A DNA stretch of 64,000 bases, from positions 310,001-374,000 of the forward strand of contig CP120462.1 in assembly GCA_034226945.1 (NCBI GenBank), given 5' to 3'. Both the position numbers and the translations under genes were made by a program. This stretch comes from Picochlorum sp. SENEW3. Taxonomy: Eukaryota. Below the pieces are notes generated by a model, which ran no database searches, was not told the DNA's origin, and saw only the letters and a program-made list of their open reading frames with translations. Shown here in pieces: positions 10,626 through 54,611 of this stretch (positions are counted from its first letter, which is position 1; every line of letters starts with the position of its first letter).

Positions 10626-10898
10626 AGCATGGGTTCAGCAATCTCGACTGGCACAAGTTAATTCAAAAAATCAAATAAATTTCAAAATCACTGTTGAATG
10701 GTTCTCTGTGAGTGGATTTGATTCATCGTAGGCATATGGGTGCGTTCAGAGGTGGGGGCCGGTCGTACGAGCACCCGCTGTGATACGCAAAACAATTGAA
10801 TTATAAGATTTTAACGCTTATTTGTATCACATGCGTAGAGTATATGCCTTCCTCGACACTCAAGCAAGAATATACGTTCTTTAGAGTAGTAGTGCGCC

Positions 10899-13800
10899 AT
10901 GCTGGTAGACCATAGAGCATCGTGTATGATCTCATCTGTTGACTCGAACTGTAATTTTTCTCGTGACAAAGGTACTGTATATCTAAAGAAAGTTTCTGGG
11001 TTTCTGCGAAGACGTGCTGAGGACAGTTGGCGAAGAGGCTCTGCTCCCTTCCTCAGAGCGAGGAGATTTCGTTCTCTAAAGGGCCGTGGTGTCCGTCACT
11101 TTGAAAATCAAGGGGTAGTAAACGCGAGATCGATGGTTGATATGCGATCTTTGGCGAAGAAAACGAGACAACTACGTTCTACCATAGAAAATGTGGCTCA
11201 AGGTCTACCTGGTGCGTGCCAGTCATCATTTTGGCAAGAGAGGAGATGTTCAAGTCGAATACACGCTATGGGAAGATGGGATCAGAGCGAATCGATCAGA
11301 AATGTGTATAGCAAGGGGGCTGCTGGATCATTGCAAGGAGATGGTATGTCCCAACAAAGAAAGTATGGGGACCACACAAGCAAGCTGAGGCCATCTATTA
11401 GGGATCACAGGGATATGATCCAGGGCATTCAGGAAAAGAATGCCGAAGAGCTGAAAAGGCACAATACTATATCAAGGAGTAGAGCCAAATTGCGTTACGA
11501 ACAAAAGATTCGAAGAACAGCAGCAGGGCGTCCTCTGCATGATGACATGCCTGTGTCAGGCAACGCAACTCTACAGAAACATGATAGTATTCTCACAGAG
11601 AAAAAAGAGACTGGGGGAGAGCAGGATTCATTTGGTGGATCAGTGGGAGTTTTTGTGCCATCTACAAAGAAAGTAAAGGAGACAGAGAAGGAAAGCCATG
11701 TTGACAAGCCTGAGCCAAAACGATCACGTGATAGCAGGACAAGAGTGACACCTCGAGTCAAAAGAGAAGCGATGGCTGTTACATCCCTATCCGACGATGA
11801 GTCTGGAGGTGCTTTTGATGAAATAATTGACGACGATGCGATCAAGAAATTTTATCACAATGAACCTCCAAAGGACGTGCACGTGGTGGATAATCTCGCA
11901 GAAGCCAAGCGTGTTGCTGCGATTTTGATGGAAGAGGAAATGCAAGGGAGGACATTTGCATGTGATACTGAGGTGATGGGTATTGATGTTACTAGGGAAT
12001 CCCCATGCTGTCATGGAGTGGTGACATGCTTCTCTATTTATTGTGGATCGGACGTTGATTTCAGTCAAGGTAGTGTGACAGGTGAGAAGAAGACAATGCT
12101 GTGGGTTGATACATGGCTGAATGGCGAGGATGCGAGAGCAGAAGAGGCTATGAATATCATGAATACTTTCAAGCCTTTTTTCGAGTCCAATAGCCATAAA
12201 AAAGTTTGGCACAATTATTCATTCGATAGGCATGTGATGGAAAGAATGAGAGTGAAATGCAATGGTTTTTATGGGGATACAATGCATATGGCAAGGCTGT
12301 GGGATTCCTCCAGAACAGGAAGAGGAGGCTACTCTCTGGAAGCCCTAACAAGTACGTATATTTTAGATTACTTTGTGCATAATCACAGGCATAATGCCCG
12401 GTATTAAATGATTTTTGCAGCTGAAGAAGATCTTATGGGACCTTTGGATATGACGGATGCCAGAGGCAAGATATCAATGAAGAAAATTTTTGGCAGGCCA
12501 AACATAAAGAAAGATGGTACAGAAGGCAAGCTCATAATTCTCCCACCCATAGAAGAGCTCCAGTCATCCGAAGAGACCCGCTGGGATTGGATTAATTATT
12601 CAGCATATGATGCCAAAGCCACCTGGGAATTGCACGAGGCCTTGGTTTTAAAATTGATGGGTATCTACACAGCACCAGATGCATATGTTAATCGTGCTTA
12701 TCAACAGTCTGGGATTGAAATCAAGAGCCTATGGGACATTTATTGCCATGTTTGGAGACCTTTTGGTGATTTATTAACAGATCTTGAGGCATATGGAGTA
12801 GCTGTTGATGTCGACCATCTCTCACAGGCTGAGAAACAGGCGACAGAGGAAGAAGCAAAGTCTAAAGCAATATTCCGCGAATGGGCTGCTTCTAAAGTTC
12901 CTGACGCAGCCTACATGAATGTTGGAAGTAGTAGCCAGGTGGTTCAGCTATTGTTTGGGGGTGCCAAGAACAGGAATAAGGACAAGCCAGGGGTGCCACT
13001 CTCAAGGACGTTCAAGGTCCCAAACATGTTGCCACCTGAAGATGGTAAAAAACCCAAAAAGAATATGGATATCACCATACACAATGTATGGAGCAAGGAT
13101 GTGCCTACTAAGCTGGTTCCTGAGATTTACACTCCAGCTGGTCTCCCAGGATGCAGCACTCAAGTCCTCAAGACAATGGCTGGAAAGCCAGGGCGGGCAA
13201 GAAAAGCTCTTGCGCAACTTACAAAAGACAGAAAAACTGGTGAAGAGGGCATCGAATCAGTCAGAAGTGATTTTGACGATGTATGGTCAACTGACGATGC
13301 AGAGATTTCAAAATTGCAAGAAGGAATGAACTTGGCCAAAAAGGAAGAGCCAATAGAAGTTTTGGACGAGATTGCAAAGCAACAGGGCTTTGGAAGACTT
13401 TTCTCTCTTTTCGGAAACCGAGAAGAAGGTCTCAAAGCATGTGCTGCGGTAGATTCTTTAATTGATGCATCTGCCATAGATACTCTTCTCTCCAACTTCA
13501 TAGTGCCACTACAGTCAGATGCCATTTTGAAATCTGATTCATCAGGAGTCCAGCGGGTTCATTGTTCGCTAAATATCAACACCGAGACAGGTAGGCTGTC
13601 AGCCAGACGACCAAATTTACAAAATCAGCCAGCTCTCGAGAAGGATAGGTATAAAGTTCGCCAAGCATTCACTGCAGATAGGAACAAAGGGAATACTCTC
13701 ATTGTGGCAGATTATGGGCAATTGGAACTTAGAATCCTAGCACACATGGCTAACTGCTCGTCAATGATTGATGCATTCGAACTAGGAGGAGACTTTCACT

Positions 13801-14483
13801 CTAGAACAGCTCTCGGTATGTATGATCATATCAAGAAAGCTGTCGACCAAGGAGACTGTCTGCTTGAATGGGATGAAAATGAAGGCAAAGGAGAACCTCC
13901 AGTCCCTCTACTCAAAGATATGTTCAGTGCTGAGAGAAGACGGGCGAAAGTTTTAAACTTTTCCATTGCGTATGGCAAAACCGCTCATGGGCTGAGCAAA
14001 GATTGGGGTGTTACTCTGAAAGAAGCTGAGGAGACAGTGGAACGATGGTATGCCGAACGAGCAGAGGTAAGAACTTGGCAACACGAGCAACATGCTCTGG
14101 CTCTCTCTGAGGGCTATGTGTGTACTATTTTAGGCCGAAGAAGGCAATTACCTGATGCAAGGAGTAAAAATAAGGCTCTCAGAGCCCACTCTTTGAGAGC
14201 AGCTATAAACACCCCAATTCAGGGATCTGCAGCCGATGTTGCAACAGCTGCCATGCTTCGCATCAACAACAACCCAACTTTGCGGCAACTAGGCTGGAAA
14301 CTCTTGCTACAAGTTCACGATGAAGTGATTCTAGAGGGTCCAAAGGAAAGCGCAGAGGTAGCTCAAGATATTGTGATTGAATGTATGAAATCACCCTTTG
14401 GAGACGACTGTGGGCCAATGCCTTTACGTGTCGAATTAAGCGTTGATAGCAAATATGCAGATACTTGGTACGATGCAAAATAA
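10899..14483 (+). CDS. Organellar DNA polymerase I (POP type); intron 12352-12420
   Basis: 3'-5' exonuclease ACDTEV and KVWHNYSFDRH; polymerase motifs ADYGQLELRILAH, AKVLNFSIAYG, LLQVHDE; A|GTACGT...TGCAG|CT joins the two ORFs in frame. Confidence 0.95.
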
Positions 14484-47624: not shown

Positions 47625-49264
47625 TTAAGAGTAGGTAATCTGGATGTCACCATACAAACAAGAGCTGGTGCCAGAGGTTGTTGATAGTACAATTGAGATG
47701 GCTCCCGTACCAGAGGGCATTGTAAACGATGCAGTCATCAGGCTTCCACTTGATCCAGGGTCATTCTGGAAGACAGCATCACCCACAGTTCCTGTTGATG
47801 GCCATGTCTGGGTGACAATGGGGAATTTTCCAGACCACAGAGACAAAAAGCTAGAGAACCCACATGTACCTCCATTGACGGTCACGGTCACACACGTGCC
47901 TGGAGGTGGTGCATATCCATTGAAGACGACAACATCCATGGTGGTTCCCGTGTTGAAGTTACCAGGATATGGTTTTGGTGTGTTGCCACACGTAGGAGGC
48001 GTACTTCCATCCCTGAACATGCGACCACCTCCCTGATAATGCCCAGATGAGATGAAGCAAGATTGAGCTTGAGGGCTGACATTGATTGCTGCACCGGGAA
48101 TCGAGGTGCAGAGTGGTTTTGTGGTGAACTGTACTGGCCCCGAGGAGCACACACTTCCTTGGCTGTTGACGGCCTTCACCCAGCAGCTGTAGGTCGTATT
48201 TGAAGACAAGCCGTTTATCACCACCGTTTCGTTTCCTCTTGGAATATCAGTGACATTCATTCCAGGATCACTGCAAGTAGACACAAGGGAATCTACACAT
48301 GTTACGGTGTACGTCTCCTCTGGATTACCTATCTTGCCATCGAGCCAAGAGATCTCAGCGCTGGTAGCTTCGATATTCTCTACAGACACAAAATTAGGAG
48401 TTCCTGCCTGTGGGGTTGAATCAATAGGCTGCAGGGAGGCGCTCAGAACAGAAACCTGGGATGAGTTGCTCACAATTTCATCTGCAAGAGCTGTCAGCGT
48501 GGAGTTTGACCCACCAAGGAGATCTTCAACCAATGATTTCCCTTTTAAGTAGCTGTCATATGCAACTGACCCAGAGACGATTGCTGGCTGATTGGGAGCA
48601 CGGGCTCCATCAGCAACAGAGCTAACAGTACAGGTGCCAAGGGGCACCAAACTCAACAAGTTCTCGCACACTTGCTTTTGCAGAGCAGTGTCAAAGAAAG
48701 CCACATCGAGTCCATACAAAAGACTGTAGGAGACAGCTCCACCCTCTGGAATCCTAGTCGACCCTGTGAAGGGACCAACGCATTTGGTAACCTTGCCAGA
48801 TGTCACAGTAATATAACAGTCATACGTTGCATTCAAGGCAAGACCGTCCACCGTAGCCTCCACAAGCGACTGTGTTTTGGGGATCACTCCTATGACTGGC
48901 GTAGATGAGCTGTTCAGAGCAGGATTTTGGCAGTCAAATGGAGCAAATTGATTCACACACGCGGCAGTAAAGTCAACCTTTTTCAAATTAGGACCAGAGT
49001 AAAATCCTGCAAAAAGACACGTCGTGGTTTTATTATTCCTTTTCCAGTTAGAATTATAGAAGAGCGATTGTCTCTGCTAGAGTCGACCGACCAGGCAACG
49101 CACGTACCAACAGTGAGAGAGGAAAGTGTAGAGTTCACAATACTAGGCTTCCTGACAGCCAACAACAGACGCTCATCCTCGGCACTAGCCTCGGCACCTG
49201 CATGAAAATCATGTGACGATAGTAGTAGTATAAGTAATCAAAGCGCTTGTTTCAATATTTCCAT
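47625..49264 (-). CDS. Secreted fibronectin type III protein with a distinct C-terminal domain; intron 49007-49107; in-frame TGA at codon 9 (possible pseudogene)
   Basis: MEILKQAL*LLILLLSS signal-like start; FN3-like motifs VDGLALNATYDCY and AEISW..INGLSSNTTYSCWVKAVN; G|GTACGT..GCAG|GA joins ORFs 48983-49165 and 47625-48986. Confidence 0.75.
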
Positions 49265-49863: not shown

Positions 49864-50094
49864 ACAACATTGATTCAACAACGCAGGTTCTGTTGAAAAT
49901 GAAGGCACGGGGTGGACGAAGGAAGAATAATTGATTGTTGTACAATTGTTGTATCATGGAATGTAAAATGGAATCCGTGTCTTGTCATACATGGACATGG
50001 AAGATATTATTTCAGGATTCTTGTTTTGCATATGAAGCTGATGCTCTCAACTCCTGCATGATTGACTTCATTTCTAAAACCTGATTGTGAGCTT
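49864..50094. repeat. 231-bp direct repeat, right copy
   Basis: Matches 47343-47573. Confidence 0.97.
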
Positions 50095-51754
50095 CTTCGG
50101 CAATCAATACAATATGCCCAGCATCCAATGATCTGAAGCTTTCCGATTCTTTCACCAACTCAAAGTGCGTCGCAAGGAAATCCAAGGACACAGCTGTCAG
50201 CTGGCCCAGGGAGAGAGCTTGCCCCATGATGAATAAATTGATTGCAACATCACAGCACTCACAAATATGCCTTTCGGATATCTCTGCTTTCTTCAATATA
50301 TCAGCCAGAACATTTTCACAATAATTCACCATCCTGGGGACTCCGTAGTAATCAGCCATCTCACACACCTGCAGTGCCTGCTCTGAACGCACATTGAGAA
50401 CATCATAGTACATGTAATCATAAAAAAGAACCTTTGCAGTATCTTCATTGAAATGGTCAGGAACCGTTACTATCGAAAGAGAAGAGTCTTTCATTCCACT
50501 CTCCGATTTTGCTTTGAAGTATGCGCTGCGATTTTTCAACACAACTGAATGCACATGGAGGGTCCACCCGCAACCCTTCAACACACAGTCTCTCTTCCCC
50601 AGATTCGATAGCACGCTACTAGCTTTGGGAGACGTACTCGGAAAGCCTTCAATAACATCTTCTGGGGACGAAGAAATTGTATCATAATATGCAAGCAACG
50701 TTGCATGCTCAATATTAACCAAATCTTGCTCATATGTAGAAGGCATCTGAACAATCCTCAGTCGCTCCTTTCGTCTCGATTTCAACACAGCTTGCATCAC
50801 ATCTATTTCCGATGGTAAGTCAAGGCTGGTAAATCTAACTTTTGCAATCTCAGATATACACGGCGTGCTCTCCGGAACCAGCTCAATGAGCGACAATTCA
50901 CTTGGAGCAATAGGTATGACAACTTTGCCTCCTTGAGGTTTTAGGAACTGAAAGAAAGAATGTGCCCTTGCTCTGGGGCAAGATGCCCCTACAAATACTC
51001 TATCATATTTCCCCTTAAATTCCTCCTCATAACACGCAATGAATGCATCCTTATGCACAATCCGCGTTGGAGCAGCAGTTGACCGAAATGGTTCTGAGGA
51101 TGCATGTAACTCATTCAATACATTTATCGACCAATCAACGCATCGCTTGTTAATGTCTATACCAGTGACATAACCCGTCTTGCCTGCCATCATTGCACAG
51201 TACGCAGTTGAAATTCCGGAACCACTTCCAATATCCACAATTGCCATTCCCTCTCGAATCTCCAACTCATTGAGAAATGTTGTATAAATATGAGGAGCAC
51301 TAATATTGCTGTCCCACTCTGCAACATGAATCGGTTGATCAACGTATGCCATATCCTTGTACTGCAAAGGGACGAATCTTCTCCTATCGCAGGCCAACAT
51401 GGCAGTCTTAATCCTGTCATCATGAATTGCACCATCTGAAGCCAGCTGTTCAATCAAGTCGTCGTTGGAGTCAGCATCTCCTTGGTGTAGATATACTTGA
51501 GATCCAGCAGCTCCTAGGATCCTGAAGAGAACAAGAGGTACACGTCAGCCATGTCACACCACGCTGGAGCAAAGCAAAAAAGTACACAAAAGAGTACCTG
51601 AAAAACCTTTCTAGGGTCACGGGGGTGCTCGTGTCCCGCGTTCGGGGGACAAATTCCTGTATATTTAGATACTCAATAATACTGTGAAACATAAACAAGG
51701 TACGGTTCAACCCAATGAAGAACAAACCTCCTCGGACTCGTCTGACTGAGACAT
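50012..51754 (-). CDS. Protein-L-isoaspartate O-methyltransferase-like domain fused to a BTB/POZ domain; exons 51754-51728, 51656-51598 and 51521-50012
   Basis: SNDDLIEQL, DRRRFVP, AYVDQP, ISAPHIY, VDIGSGSG, YDRVFVGAS; BTB motifs DCVLKG..HVHSVVLKNRSAYFKA..SGMKDS..DYMYYD..ADYYGVPRMVNYCE. Confidence 0.88.
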
Positions 51755-51873: not shown

Positions 51874-54611
51874 TTAATCCAAAAGTCCTTTGAATGGATC
51901 TGGAGTCGACTCCTGGGTAGAAGGGCGCGCTGGTGGATGCGCTGGTTCGTCTACTGGCAGAGTATCTGCCTCGAACGATCCGAACATGTCCATCTCGTTG
52001 CTTTGATTTTGCGGTGCAGATGTCACTGGTAGCGCAGAATCATCCCCGAGTAGGTCGAGAAGGCTGGCATCTCCCTGGGTTGTCTCTGTCTGCTGTTGTG
52101 GAGCAGCATGCTCATCTACTCCAAGGTCCAGAAGATCCTTTGAGTCGACACTCGGCTGGATTTTGGATGATAGATTTATTCCAACTGACGCTGTGGGTCC
52201 AGTTCCAGTTCCGAAGAGAGAGGCAGCAAGGAGCTCCTGCTGTGGATCTACACGTTGCTGAGGCATTGAAGGGGATGTGTAGATTGATGTTGAGGTTGCG
52301 TGCTCTTTTGCGTGCTGCTGTCGCTCGACTCCTGGAACATTCGATTTTGATGATGGTGAAGGAGTAGATGTAGGACCCCATCGTCTTTGACTCGAACTTC
52401 TTCCCACATGTAATGTCTCTGTGCTAGATTCTGGCACAGGTTCCTCCAACCCTGTCCTAGAGTCACCAATGACAAGGTCTCCAAGTAAATCATCCACCTG
52501 GTGTGCATGAGGATTTTCAACTTGTCCCCCGACTGTTTTCTGGGCTTCTTGTCGTTCATATGCCTCAAATTTGAGGTCCCTCTGAAAGGGTTTGACAACT
52601 CTGGTGGCATCATGCATCATGCCCATCGATTCTCTCTCCTCTCTGCTCAAGTACTCCGCAGCCCCTTCTCGAATTGCTGCATTGGATATATCATCCAAGA
52701 AAGAAAAAGACCTCCCAGGCAGTGGGCGAAACGGGGCTTTGCTCTGTAGCTGAGAGCGCTTCTCGGCCACAGAACAGGCTTCAAAGGCAGCTTGCCTGAC
52801 TGGTAAAATTTCTGACGAGCTGAGGGACCGCAGCAATGCCAGTGTTTCTTCGGAAAGTCCTCTTTCCATACGAATGCTAATCTTTGACAGTGCCATGATG
52901 CAGGTTTCCGAGAGAGCAGCAGAGCTCGTGTGTGATTCCAAAATGTCAGTGAGCGTAGAGCAAACAGACTCGGCTGGCAATCCAGCATCAATGCCATATT
53001 CTCCTAGGGTCCAACATATAACTTTCATAAGAGGTGCTGGCAACTTTTTCCCCGAAAGCATCTCAGAGTATGTATGGGTAGTTTTGTTTCGAAGCATGAG
53101 GTCTGCAGCAGGATCTGTGCCTCCACTACCATCCTTGAGTGCACGAATCAAAGAATGCTCTGCTTCCACTGGAGATAAATTTCCACACTGCTTTAGCAAA
53201 TTCGTAATAGAATCAACAAACCAGGACAGGGATGGGGCAAATTTTTCTGCTACATGTAGGAGAGAGGATGCAGCAGACTTTCTAGTCTCTTCATCGATGG
53301 AGTCATCGCCAATGAACTCAAGCACTTCTCCTAGAACAACGGTAATGTTGCTAGGCGTCGTCATCTGAAAGATCAAATCCACCGTCCTACCCTTTAAGGT
53401 GACATCAGGGGAGCGTAGTGCTTCAACAATGGCCATTTGATGCTGCTGTACTTTTCCAGCATCCCCATCCCGAATCATCCTACTCAATATCTCTATACCA
53501 GCGCATTTTAGGTTATTATCTGTGCTATTCAGGAACACAGCCGCGGTATCTAAACTTAAACTGTACAGGGTATCTGATGGTACAATTGTGGTTGCTGTTT
53601 TCATGCATTCAAAAAGAATCGCATTCCCTGCTTGACTCATGAGCGATTGTGCTCGCTTCCACACGTCCACTAGTACAACTTGCATATCACTGCTTACCTG
53701 AGGGTTGTCCGCCCCAAGAAGTCCCAACAAGCGTAACAAGGTGATTTGGAGGAAAGGTGCTGGGGCTCTGTGAACCACCCAACTCCTACCCAGCTTTCCT
53801 TCCGACGCCTGCTTCAATATATTAGTAAAATAATGTACCAAGCCTTGATATGGCTTGGGATTCAGCTTGATCAAATCATAGAGCCCTGGCAACACAGCAA
53901 ACATCACTGCTGGTTCCTTGTACCCCAATTTCTCTACAAAGACTTGGCCAATGTCATCCCCTATGGAAGGGTCCACCAACAAAAGACTATGAAGGGTAAT
54001 CAAGGCTCTCTTCTTCACCTGATCACGATCATGTTTCACTAAACCCACAACTTCAGGCAGGAATATATTCGCAAGCTCAGCATTGGCAATGGTGGGAATA
54101 GCATGCAACGCCGTGCAGATGGTCAAAAAATTGTCACTCTTCAAATCCGCTTGAATCGTTGCTGTCAAAAGAATCGTCAACTCGCTCGCAGGATCGATCA
54201 GAAGAGACGCAGTCAGGTACCCAGTCTACAAAGGAACACACAGTGTCACTCAGTCCTGAAATCCACAGTGTAACGACCATAGCACTACCAACCCACCTTT
54301 TTTACTTGTAAATTCTTATTACCACACAGTTGTATAACCGTTGGAAGCGCCCAGGATGTGTCGTGACCCAACATGTTAATATACAAGAGGTAGACTAGAA
54401 AATCCTTCATGGCCCTCGCATTCTGACCCTTACTCGAAAATCCAGCCTTAATCTTACTCTTGCATATTTCAATCATTCTCTTCACCAGGTCATCCTCCTC
54501 AGCCTTTGATTTTGCCTCTCCAATCGACCTGACAAGAAACTCAAAATCACCGCTAAAGGTCGCTGCCGGCAATCTCTTCGCAAGGCCTGCTATTTTCGTA
54601 GATATATCCAT
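51874..54611 (-). CDS. AP4E1: AP-4 complex subunit epsilon; intron 54226-54296
   Basis: LVRSIGEAKSKAEED, MLGHD, KK|TGYL, TIQADLKSDN, HRAPAPFLQI, LKFEAYE, RRWGP. Confidence 0.88.

Follow-up and report, generated by a model that had tools for sequence, protein, structure and literature searches.

Introduction

Human PCMTD1 carries a PCMT-like reader of isoaspartyl (isoAsp) residues on a cullin-RING ligase (CRL); that it reads isoaspartyl damage there is a recent finding, whose authors ask whether other ligases do likewise (PMC12590147; all statements from this paper refer to an excerpt of its text). Here we describe a gene in a 64,000-nucleotide stretch of the genome of Picochlorum sp. SENEW3 (GenBank GCA_034226945.1, contig CP120462.1, positions 310,001 to 374,000, forward strand; hereafter the window) that encodes a PCMT-like domain followed by a BTB domain. 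We estimate a probability of roughly 0.55 that this PCMT-BTB protein serves CUL3 as a substrate receptor for isoaspartyl damage. It would carry the PCMTD idea over to another cullin, with a reader domain that forms a class of its own.

The CRL5 receptors PCMTD1 and PCMTD2 (9oma) share with the window protein an N-terminal PCMT-like fold followed by a cullin-RING-recruiting module, binding motifs for S-adenosylmethionine (AdoMet), and replacement of the catalytic-type Thr at pre-motif I. They differ in the recruiting module, which is an extended SOCS box (ElonginBC-CUL5) in PCMTD proteins and a BTB domain with BACK-like helices (CUL3 type) in the window protein, and in carrying His at pre-motif I and Asn at the start of motif I where the window protein carries Asn and Asp. 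On CUL5, human PCMTD1 binds AdoMet, and isoAsp peptides are bound only with AdoMet and without being methylated; a change from Thr to His closes off the channel linking AdoMet to the substrate carboxyl. Made in PCMT1, this change removes most activity, and the reverse change in PCMTD1 does not bring activity back (PMC12590147). The Thr carries no number in that excerpt, and we equate it with position 72 of the window protein because the named PCMTD proteins have His there.

Canonical PCMT1/PIMT (1i1n, 1kr5) resembles the head of the window protein in fold (Z 28.8, root-mean-square deviation (rmsd) 1.7-1.8 Å, 32% identity) and in the motif I Asp and S-A-P-H string, but has Thr in place of the Asn and lacks the ~270 extra C-terminal residues that include the BTB domain. 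The C-terminal half resembles SPOP and plant BPM (MATH-BTB), KBTBD2, KBTBD4 and KLHL3, in which a BTB domain is followed by 3-box/BACK helices (175-183 residues aligned), and it shares with SPOP/BPM and the BTB-BACK-Kelch CUL3 adaptors a phi-X-(D/E) motif with a nearby Ala and the pairing of one substrate-binding domain with one BTB domain. Unlike in SPOP/BPM and the Kelch adaptors, the putative substrate domain of the window protein is a methyltransferase fold N-terminal to the BTB domain, with no MATH or Kelch domain, and identity between its BTB domain and those of the SPOP/Kelch type is only 16-22%. Cereblon (CRL4) is likened by concept alone: it is a cullin-RING receptor whose degron is a spontaneous Asn/Gln lesion (C-terminal cyclic imides; PMC12590147), with an unrelated fold, a different cullin and a different lesion.

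Results

One spliced gene encodes both domains

The gene lies on the minus strand at 50012-51754 (ATG 51754-51752, TGA 50014-50012), and a scripted check of the splice model gave a coding sequence of three exons, 1596 nt and 531 amino acids with a single terminal stop.

51728..51754, minus strand: exon 1, MSQSDESEE from the ATG, with the same N-terminus in relative P0001
51657..51727, minus strand: intron 1, 71 nt, ends GTTTGT..ATACAG, skipped by contigs of X1 and X3
51598..51656, minus strand: exon 2, 59 nt, EFVPRTRDTSTPVTLERFF plus two bases of an Arg codon
51522..51597, minus strand: intron 2, 76 nt, ends GTACTC..CTTCAG, skipped by contigs of X1 and X3
50012..51521, minus strand: exon 3, 1510 nt, both domains and the TGA stop

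Residues are numbered on the 502-residue product of exon 3 (add 29 for the full protein); the stop-to-stop frame comprises 510 codons, from 51544 to 50012. A sequence-only reading of the window had proposed a single spliced open reading frame (ORF) with a PCMT-like domain, then a BTB domain and trailing helices, and the splice model, Pfam and the contigs described below all agree with it. The strings it quoted (SNDDLIEQL, AYVDQP, ISAPHIY, VDIGSGSG and YDRVFVGAS) all occur in the exon 3 translation, and neither a stop nor an intron separates the domains, both of which are held by exon 3.

Contigs of two runs from one study, X1 and X3, match the window at ~98.5% identity with gaps of 71 and 76 nt at the introns, and run continuously over 49900-51527, spanning both domains. 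Their 'RNA?' label is a guess, and we take them as RNA-like and from a close strain. The aligner put the 76-nt joint at 51528-51603, 6 nt from the canonical site, with length and frame unchanged; we read this offset as an aligner choice between the near-identical TTTCAG and CTTCAG. Across exon 3, X1 differs from the window at 18 positions, of which 13 are synonymous and 5 nonsynonymous, which fits a coding frame under selection. The fusion is thus made as one spliced message in a close strain, the RNA-like contigs being unbroken over both domains.

Because the X1 and X3 contigs extend into the adjoining gene, they do not define the transcript ends. That gene (51874-54225, minus strand) encodes an adaptin N-terminal region (PF01602, E 5e-55) and ends ~120 nt upstream of the PCMT-BTB ATG; the RNA-like contigs span both genes. 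Of two further runs, X9, an oligo-dT marine metatranscriptome, yielded one 151-nt contig identical to 50646-50796, too little for a claim about habitat, and X5 is probably DNA and gave partial cover at low depth.

The fusion is not confined to green algae

The nearest proteins are from Picochlorum, namely P0001 (a eukprot model) and P0003 (Picochlorum sp. BPE23), and both Pfam domains occur in 8 of the 10 hits of this search (49-98% identity to the window protein). The public models of these closest relatives are imperfect, with P0001 lacking two internal stretches and P0003 (446 aa) showing only PCMT in precomputed Pfam, so the architecture is hidden in those annotations. A profile built on nine fused proteins was searched against a set of 1.84 billion cluster representatives (50% identity level); 9380 of them scored at E up to 1e-3, and 79 at E up to 1e-30. 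A Pfam scan then took 75 of the best 150 hits, mostly the longer and higher-ranked ones, with short fragments omitted. PF01135 and PF00651 were found together (E up to 1e-4) in 50 of these 75, placing the fusion in at least 50 cluster representatives, and Pfam found BTB in none of 37 further proteins. The ESM Atlas has one cluster of 62 members, mostly Chlorophyta (PCMT 100%, BTB 98%). A homology search with the 52-sequence alignment of fused relatives returned 9 proteins, all already in the set, and added no taxa.

Taxon names rest on 30 look-ups, most of them nameless, and bear on presence only, not on absence from land plants, animals or fungi. Fused members were found in green algae (Picochlorum, Micractinium conductrix, Auxenochlorella, Tetraselmis astigmatica), in red algae (Galdieria sulphuraria, Porphyridium aerugineum) and in the heterolobosean Pharyngomonas kirbyi. 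A further fused member has the eukprot prefix Clim, which we take to be Corallochytrium limacisporum. The fusion is therefore not confined to green algae, and the earlier suggestion that it was assembled there is not supported. Public entries of the family are named plain methyltransferase or hypothetical, with one Galdieria entry named PCMTD1, and under such names the architecture is easily missed. A full-text literature search, with subscription journals largely beyond its reach, found no paper on a PCMT-BTB protein, in line with the sequence-only reading, which knew of no characterized protein of this architecture.

These data also bear on whether the fusion is an artefact in which two neighbouring genes were read as one. 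The incomplete P0001 model and the PCMT-only Pfam record of P0003 point that way. Against it, a single frame is stop-free over 1510 nt, the RNA-like contigs are unbroken over this frame yet skip both true introns, the 50 cluster representatives carry both domains, and the AlphaFold2 model, built with 52 fused relatives, has a predicted template modelling score (pTM) of 0.85 (mean predicted local distance difference test (pLDDT) 93.3, weak only at residues 282-299 and both ends). The open frame, spliced contigs and conserved fusion practically refute an artefact, and we consider it extremely improbable.

The PCMT-like head belongs to a third class

We annotated the N-terminal half from Pfam, the AlphaFold2 model and conservation among the fused relatives.

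50813..51472, minus strand: PCMT-like seven-beta-strand methyltransferase domain, residues 17-236 (46-265 of the full protein), from Pfam and structure
51290..51307, minus strand: pre-motif I, N-I-S-A-P-H, with N72 (N101 of the full protein), from the HMMER alignment to human PCMT1
51215..51235, minus strand: motif I, D-I-G-S-G-S-G, predicted AdoMet binding, by conservation in fused relatives
51155-51157, minus strand: post-I acidic residue D122, acidic in 52/52 fused relatives
50678..50809, minus strand: two conserved helices after the methyltransferase fold, residues 238-281, from AlphaFold2 secondary structure and invariant alignment columns
50624-50677, minus strand: low-confidence linker, residues 282-299, from pLDDT

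The head matched PF01135 with E 1.7e-31 (110.1 bits against a cut-off of 20.3) over residues 26-224 of the stop-to-stop frame. In VIA-align comparisons, the model of the head superposed on solved PCMTs (2yxe, 1jg1, 4o29, 1kr5, 1i1n) with Z 28.8-29.5 and rmsd 1.7-2.0 Å over 201-207 residues, and on PCMTD1 (9oma_A) with Z 27.0 over 215 aligned residues. By sequence the head was closer to human PCMT1 (1.1e-20, the best match among PDB sequences) than to PCMTD1 (7.8e-16). Within motif I, D96 was conserved in all 52 fused relatives and G98, G100 and G102 in 51 each, so the AdoMet-binding motifs are intact; the pre-motif I serine S74 was likewise kept in all 52. In 50 of the 52, residue 72 is Asn, which the HMMER alignment sets against the Thr of human PCMT1, so the catalytic-type Thr is absent from the head.

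Pre-motif I sorted all retrieved proteins into three kinds. Short proteins read T-I-S-A-P-H, a second set with the named animal PCMTD1/2 (P0123, P0146) among its members reads H-[LIM]-S-A-P, and the BTB proteins read N-[IVL]-S-A-P. We built a quick tree of 114 domain rows, from which rows covering <185 profile positions and 11 near-duplicates had first been dropped. It split a 66-row Asn group from the other 48 rows (SH-aLRT, the Shimodaira-Hasegawa-like approximate likelihood ratio test, 95), with all 51 BTB-bearing rows inside this group and 0/48 among the others. Thr rows (11, support 98) and His rows (37, support 90) each formed a clade; none of the 11 Thr rows carried BTB, and the canonical enzymes in the sample were mostly short and single-domain. 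A more careful tree, under a site-heterogeneous model, used 57 rows: the full set of 11 Thr rows, a random draw of 18 from the 31 His rows, and 28 Asn rows of our choosing. The Thr clade was recovered with support 99/96, and 17 of 18 His rows, including the PCMTD2-like P0123, grouped together with the window protein excluded (98/90). The Asn rows grouped with the long-branch His row P0098 at 85/87, with a long-branch warning. In these trees the window protein falls outside the clade of animal PCMTD1/2, and support for the monophyly of its own Asn group is only moderate; as there are just three clades and no external root, the branching order, including any sisterhood of Asn and His, is unreadable.

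Residues at the diagnostic positions of the three clades were as follows.

Position 72 (pre-motif I): Thr clade T 100%, His clade H 100%, Asn clade N 97%
Position 96 (motif I start): Thr clade D 91%, His clade N 90%, Asn clade D 100%
Position 74 (serine): S 100% in the Thr, His and Asn clades

The motif I glycines were conserved in all three clades, and the S-A-P core of pre-motif I and its surrounding residues were kept in all three classes. The domain had earlier been likened to the PCMTD type, a placement that does not hold: it falls outside the PCMTD clade, has Asn rather than His and Asp rather than Asn at the two diagnostic positions, and is nearer to PCMT1 in sequence.

Asn at pre-motif I is a third state beside Thr and His. 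Because of the change from Thr to Asn and the precedent of the inactive PCMTD1, we lean slightly towards the head being a reader rather than an enzyme. Asn takes up less space than His, and the head keeps the enzyme-type Asp of motif I, so catalysis may be retained. This bears on a rival explanation, in which the protein is an active protein-L-isoaspartyl O-methyltransferase that acts in repair, with BTB/BACK serving only dimerization, higher-order assembly or localization, and no ubiquitin ligase is involved. That account is favoured by the intact AdoMet motifs and substrate serine, by a motif I Asp as in catalytic PCMT1 and unlike PCMTD, by an Asn smaller than the channel-blocking His of PCMTD1 (PMC12590147), and by human PCMT1 as top PDB sequence match. 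It must explain why Asn has taken the place, in 97% of the window protein's clade, of the Thr found in 11/11 canonical rows, and it meets further difficulties in the BTB half.

Another rival explanation retains the CUL3 receptor but has the head re-aimed at a regulatory protein or another carboxyl-bearing mark, so that the protein would serve pathway regulation and not protein quality. A separate class with its own diagnostic residue is compatible with this, the two conserved helices and the invariant residues after the fold (VRFT..L..PSE) could form a different pocket, and alternative PCMTD1 substrates are raised in PMC12590147 itself. However, the S-A-P core and neighbouring residues are common to all three classes, the pocket fold superposes on PCMTs at the rmsd given above, and the spread over eukaryotic groups is more in keeping with a general housekeeping target than with one restricted to a lineage. 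We regard a re-aimed head as unlikely.

The BTB half looks CUL3-competent

The C-terminal half contains the following elements.

50285..50623, minus strand: BTB/POZ domain, residues 300-412, from Pfam and structural matches
50510-50512, minus strand: A337, from the HMMER alignment to SPOP
50486..50494, minus strand: M343-K344-D345 (M372-K-D374 of the full protein), a phi-X-(D/E) match, from the HMMER alignment to SPOP
50024..50275, minus strand: helical region after the BTB domain, 3-box/BACK-like, residues 416-499, ending in a 33-residue helix, pLDDT >90

PF00651 matched residues 319-414 of the stop-to-stop frame with E 6.7e-13 (49.2 bits against a cut-off of 20.5), and Pfam gave no SOCS_box match in the window protein at E up to 0.1. 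The key CUL3 determinant of BTB adaptors is phi-X-(D/E) in the alpha3-beta4 loop; SPOP M233E abolishes CUL3 binding, and the residue equivalent to A227 must stay hydrophobic (PMC6484134, from an excerpt of its text). In the HMMER alignment, A337, M343 and D345 lie opposite SPOP A227, M233 and E235, and these positions were conserved among the 52 fused relatives (A 47/52, M 47/52, D/E 50/52). The model of the tail matched the BTB-BACK region of SPOP (model residues 293-485 on SPOP 180-364; Z 15.6, 179 residues), KBTBD2 in its CUL3 complex (Z 14.5, 176 residues) and vaccinia A55 BTB-BACK in its CUL3 complex (Z 14.1, 175 residues) in VIA-align, and Foldseek agreed with these structural matches. 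Relatives P0013, P0039 and P0041 pass the Pfam BACK_BPM_SPOP threshold. Judged by alignment and model, the BTB part looks CUL3-competent and shows features that have been published for CUL3 adaptors.

These results return to the account of an active repair enzyme with a structural BTB domain. BTB is a dimerization module in many non-adaptor proteins, as the BCL6 structural matches exemplify, and on this point the account gains. Yet a CUL3-contact motif kept across 52 divergent relatives is hard to explain by dimerization alone, the best long matches, covering BTB and the following helices, are CUL3 adaptors, and sister architectures bear RING or SOCS modules. On balance we give the active-enzyme explanation a small share of the probability.

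The partner surface was assessed in CUL3 itself. With a degenerate pattern that matches a nine-residue motif of CUL3, we gathered 118 CUL3 loci from metagenome contigs. In an alignment of 40 CUL3 sequences that included the chlorophyte Raphidocelis (P0290), S53, Y58 and Y62 were invariant and F54 was near-invariant, and a Tetraselmis CUL3 fragment is on record. As far as can be judged from alignment, the CUL3 surface that receives the phi-X-(D/E) motif exists in green algae. One metagenome CUL3 fragment (L116), guessed to be algal by G+C, was identical to an amoebozoan entry and was rejected.

Other ubiquitin-ligase modules joined to the domain

Of the 75 scanned proteins, 50 have a non-canonical PCMT-like domain fused to BTB and 5 have one fused to RING, and the 37 further proteins contained RING with Yippee in 2 and a weak SOCS box in 2 (animal-type P0120 and P0137, both below cut-off). 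PCMT-like plus RING was seen in P0044 (Pelomyxa schiedti KAH3759527.1) and P0095, PCMT-like plus kinase plus RING in P0068 and P0098, and RING, an Asn-class PCMT-like domain and Yippee/Mis18 in one protein in P0102, P0119 and P0124; P0150 combines the PCMT-like domain with a TIR domain and P0131 with a SAM domain. Repeated joining to ubiquitin-ligase modules is as expected for a substrate-recognition domain. The Yippee fold is kin to the CULT domain of cereblon, which reads cyclic imides, and a RING ligase with two damage-reader domains, as P0102, P0119 and P0124 would be, is worth a look.

Discussion

The reading that we favour, a CUL3 receptor for isoaspartyl damage, would work as follows. 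The PCMT-like head would bind AdoMet, and its pre-motif I serine and pocket would grip an L-isoaspartyl residue of a damaged protein by its free alpha-carboxyl. By analogy with PCMTD1, reading of isoAsp would probably depend on AdoMet. The BTB domain would dimerize and dock on the CUL3 N-terminal domain by its M-K-D loop and the following helices, and a damaged protein bound by the head would be ubiquitylated and then degraded. We infer the binding of isoAsp, the binding of CUL3 and ubiquitylation from these comparisons; the whole system would be the CUL3 counterpart of animal PCMTD1-CUL5. To our knowledge, plants have no CUL5. The analogy with PCMTD1 that the sequence-only reading drew is reasonable, PCMTD1 being a PCMT-like isoAsp reader on a cullin-RING ligase (PMC12590147).

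Several observations weigh against this CUL3-receptor reading. The motif I Asp is that of catalytic PCMT1 and not of PCMTD, and the sequence score is nearer to PCMT1 than to PCMTD1, so the head may still be an enzyme. BTB cores of the BCL6 type, which belong to transcriptional repressors, matched with Z 14-14.9 over ~116-120 residues, covering the BTB core alone; Pfam BACK scored 15.7 bits in the window protein, below its cut-off of 20.9; and SPOP D278, a secondary CUL3 contact, aligns with D390, a position at which the majority residue among 9 close relatives is His. No cullin was present among the 35 large ORFs of the window. The relatives were sampled as the 150 best hits of the fused-family profile, which favours fused proteins. 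Finally, ubiquitylation is unproven even for PCMTD1, according to the excerpt of PMC12590147.

If CUL3 and isoAsp are bound, degradation of isoaspartyl proteins, besides their repair, would be a general eukaryotic strategy, and the PCMT-BTB family would show the reader fold wired a second time, independently, to another cullin. The hosts of PCMT-BTB proteins are easy to grow and some are engineerable, and the natural Thr/His/Asn series at one channel residue offers a direct handle on enzyme versus reader.

A broader and more tentative proposal, which we consider less likely than not, gives the isoaspartyl methyltransferase family an old third branch, the Asn-class PCMT-like domain, whose role across many eukaryotic groups would be to read damage for CUL3 ligases. 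If it were true, ligase-coupled isoaspartyl disposal would be widespread, perhaps ancestral in eukaryotes, and no animal invention, and the reader fold would have been wired in at least three ways: SOCS box-CUL5, BTB-CUL3 and direct RING fusions, some with a Yippee-type domain.

Other features of the window

The window has 45% G+C and carries ordinary nuclear genes. At 10893-14480 (plus strand), ORFs for a 3'-5' exonuclease and for a family A DNA polymerase share one frame and are parted by a single TAA (12405-12407), which may lie in a small intron or be a real stop. At 47625-49076 (minus strand), a 483-codon frame rich in Ser, Thr, Gly and Val includes a single fibronectin type III match (E 1.4e-10) along with numerous N-x-S/T sites, and its predicted product may be a secreted or cell-surface glycoprotein.

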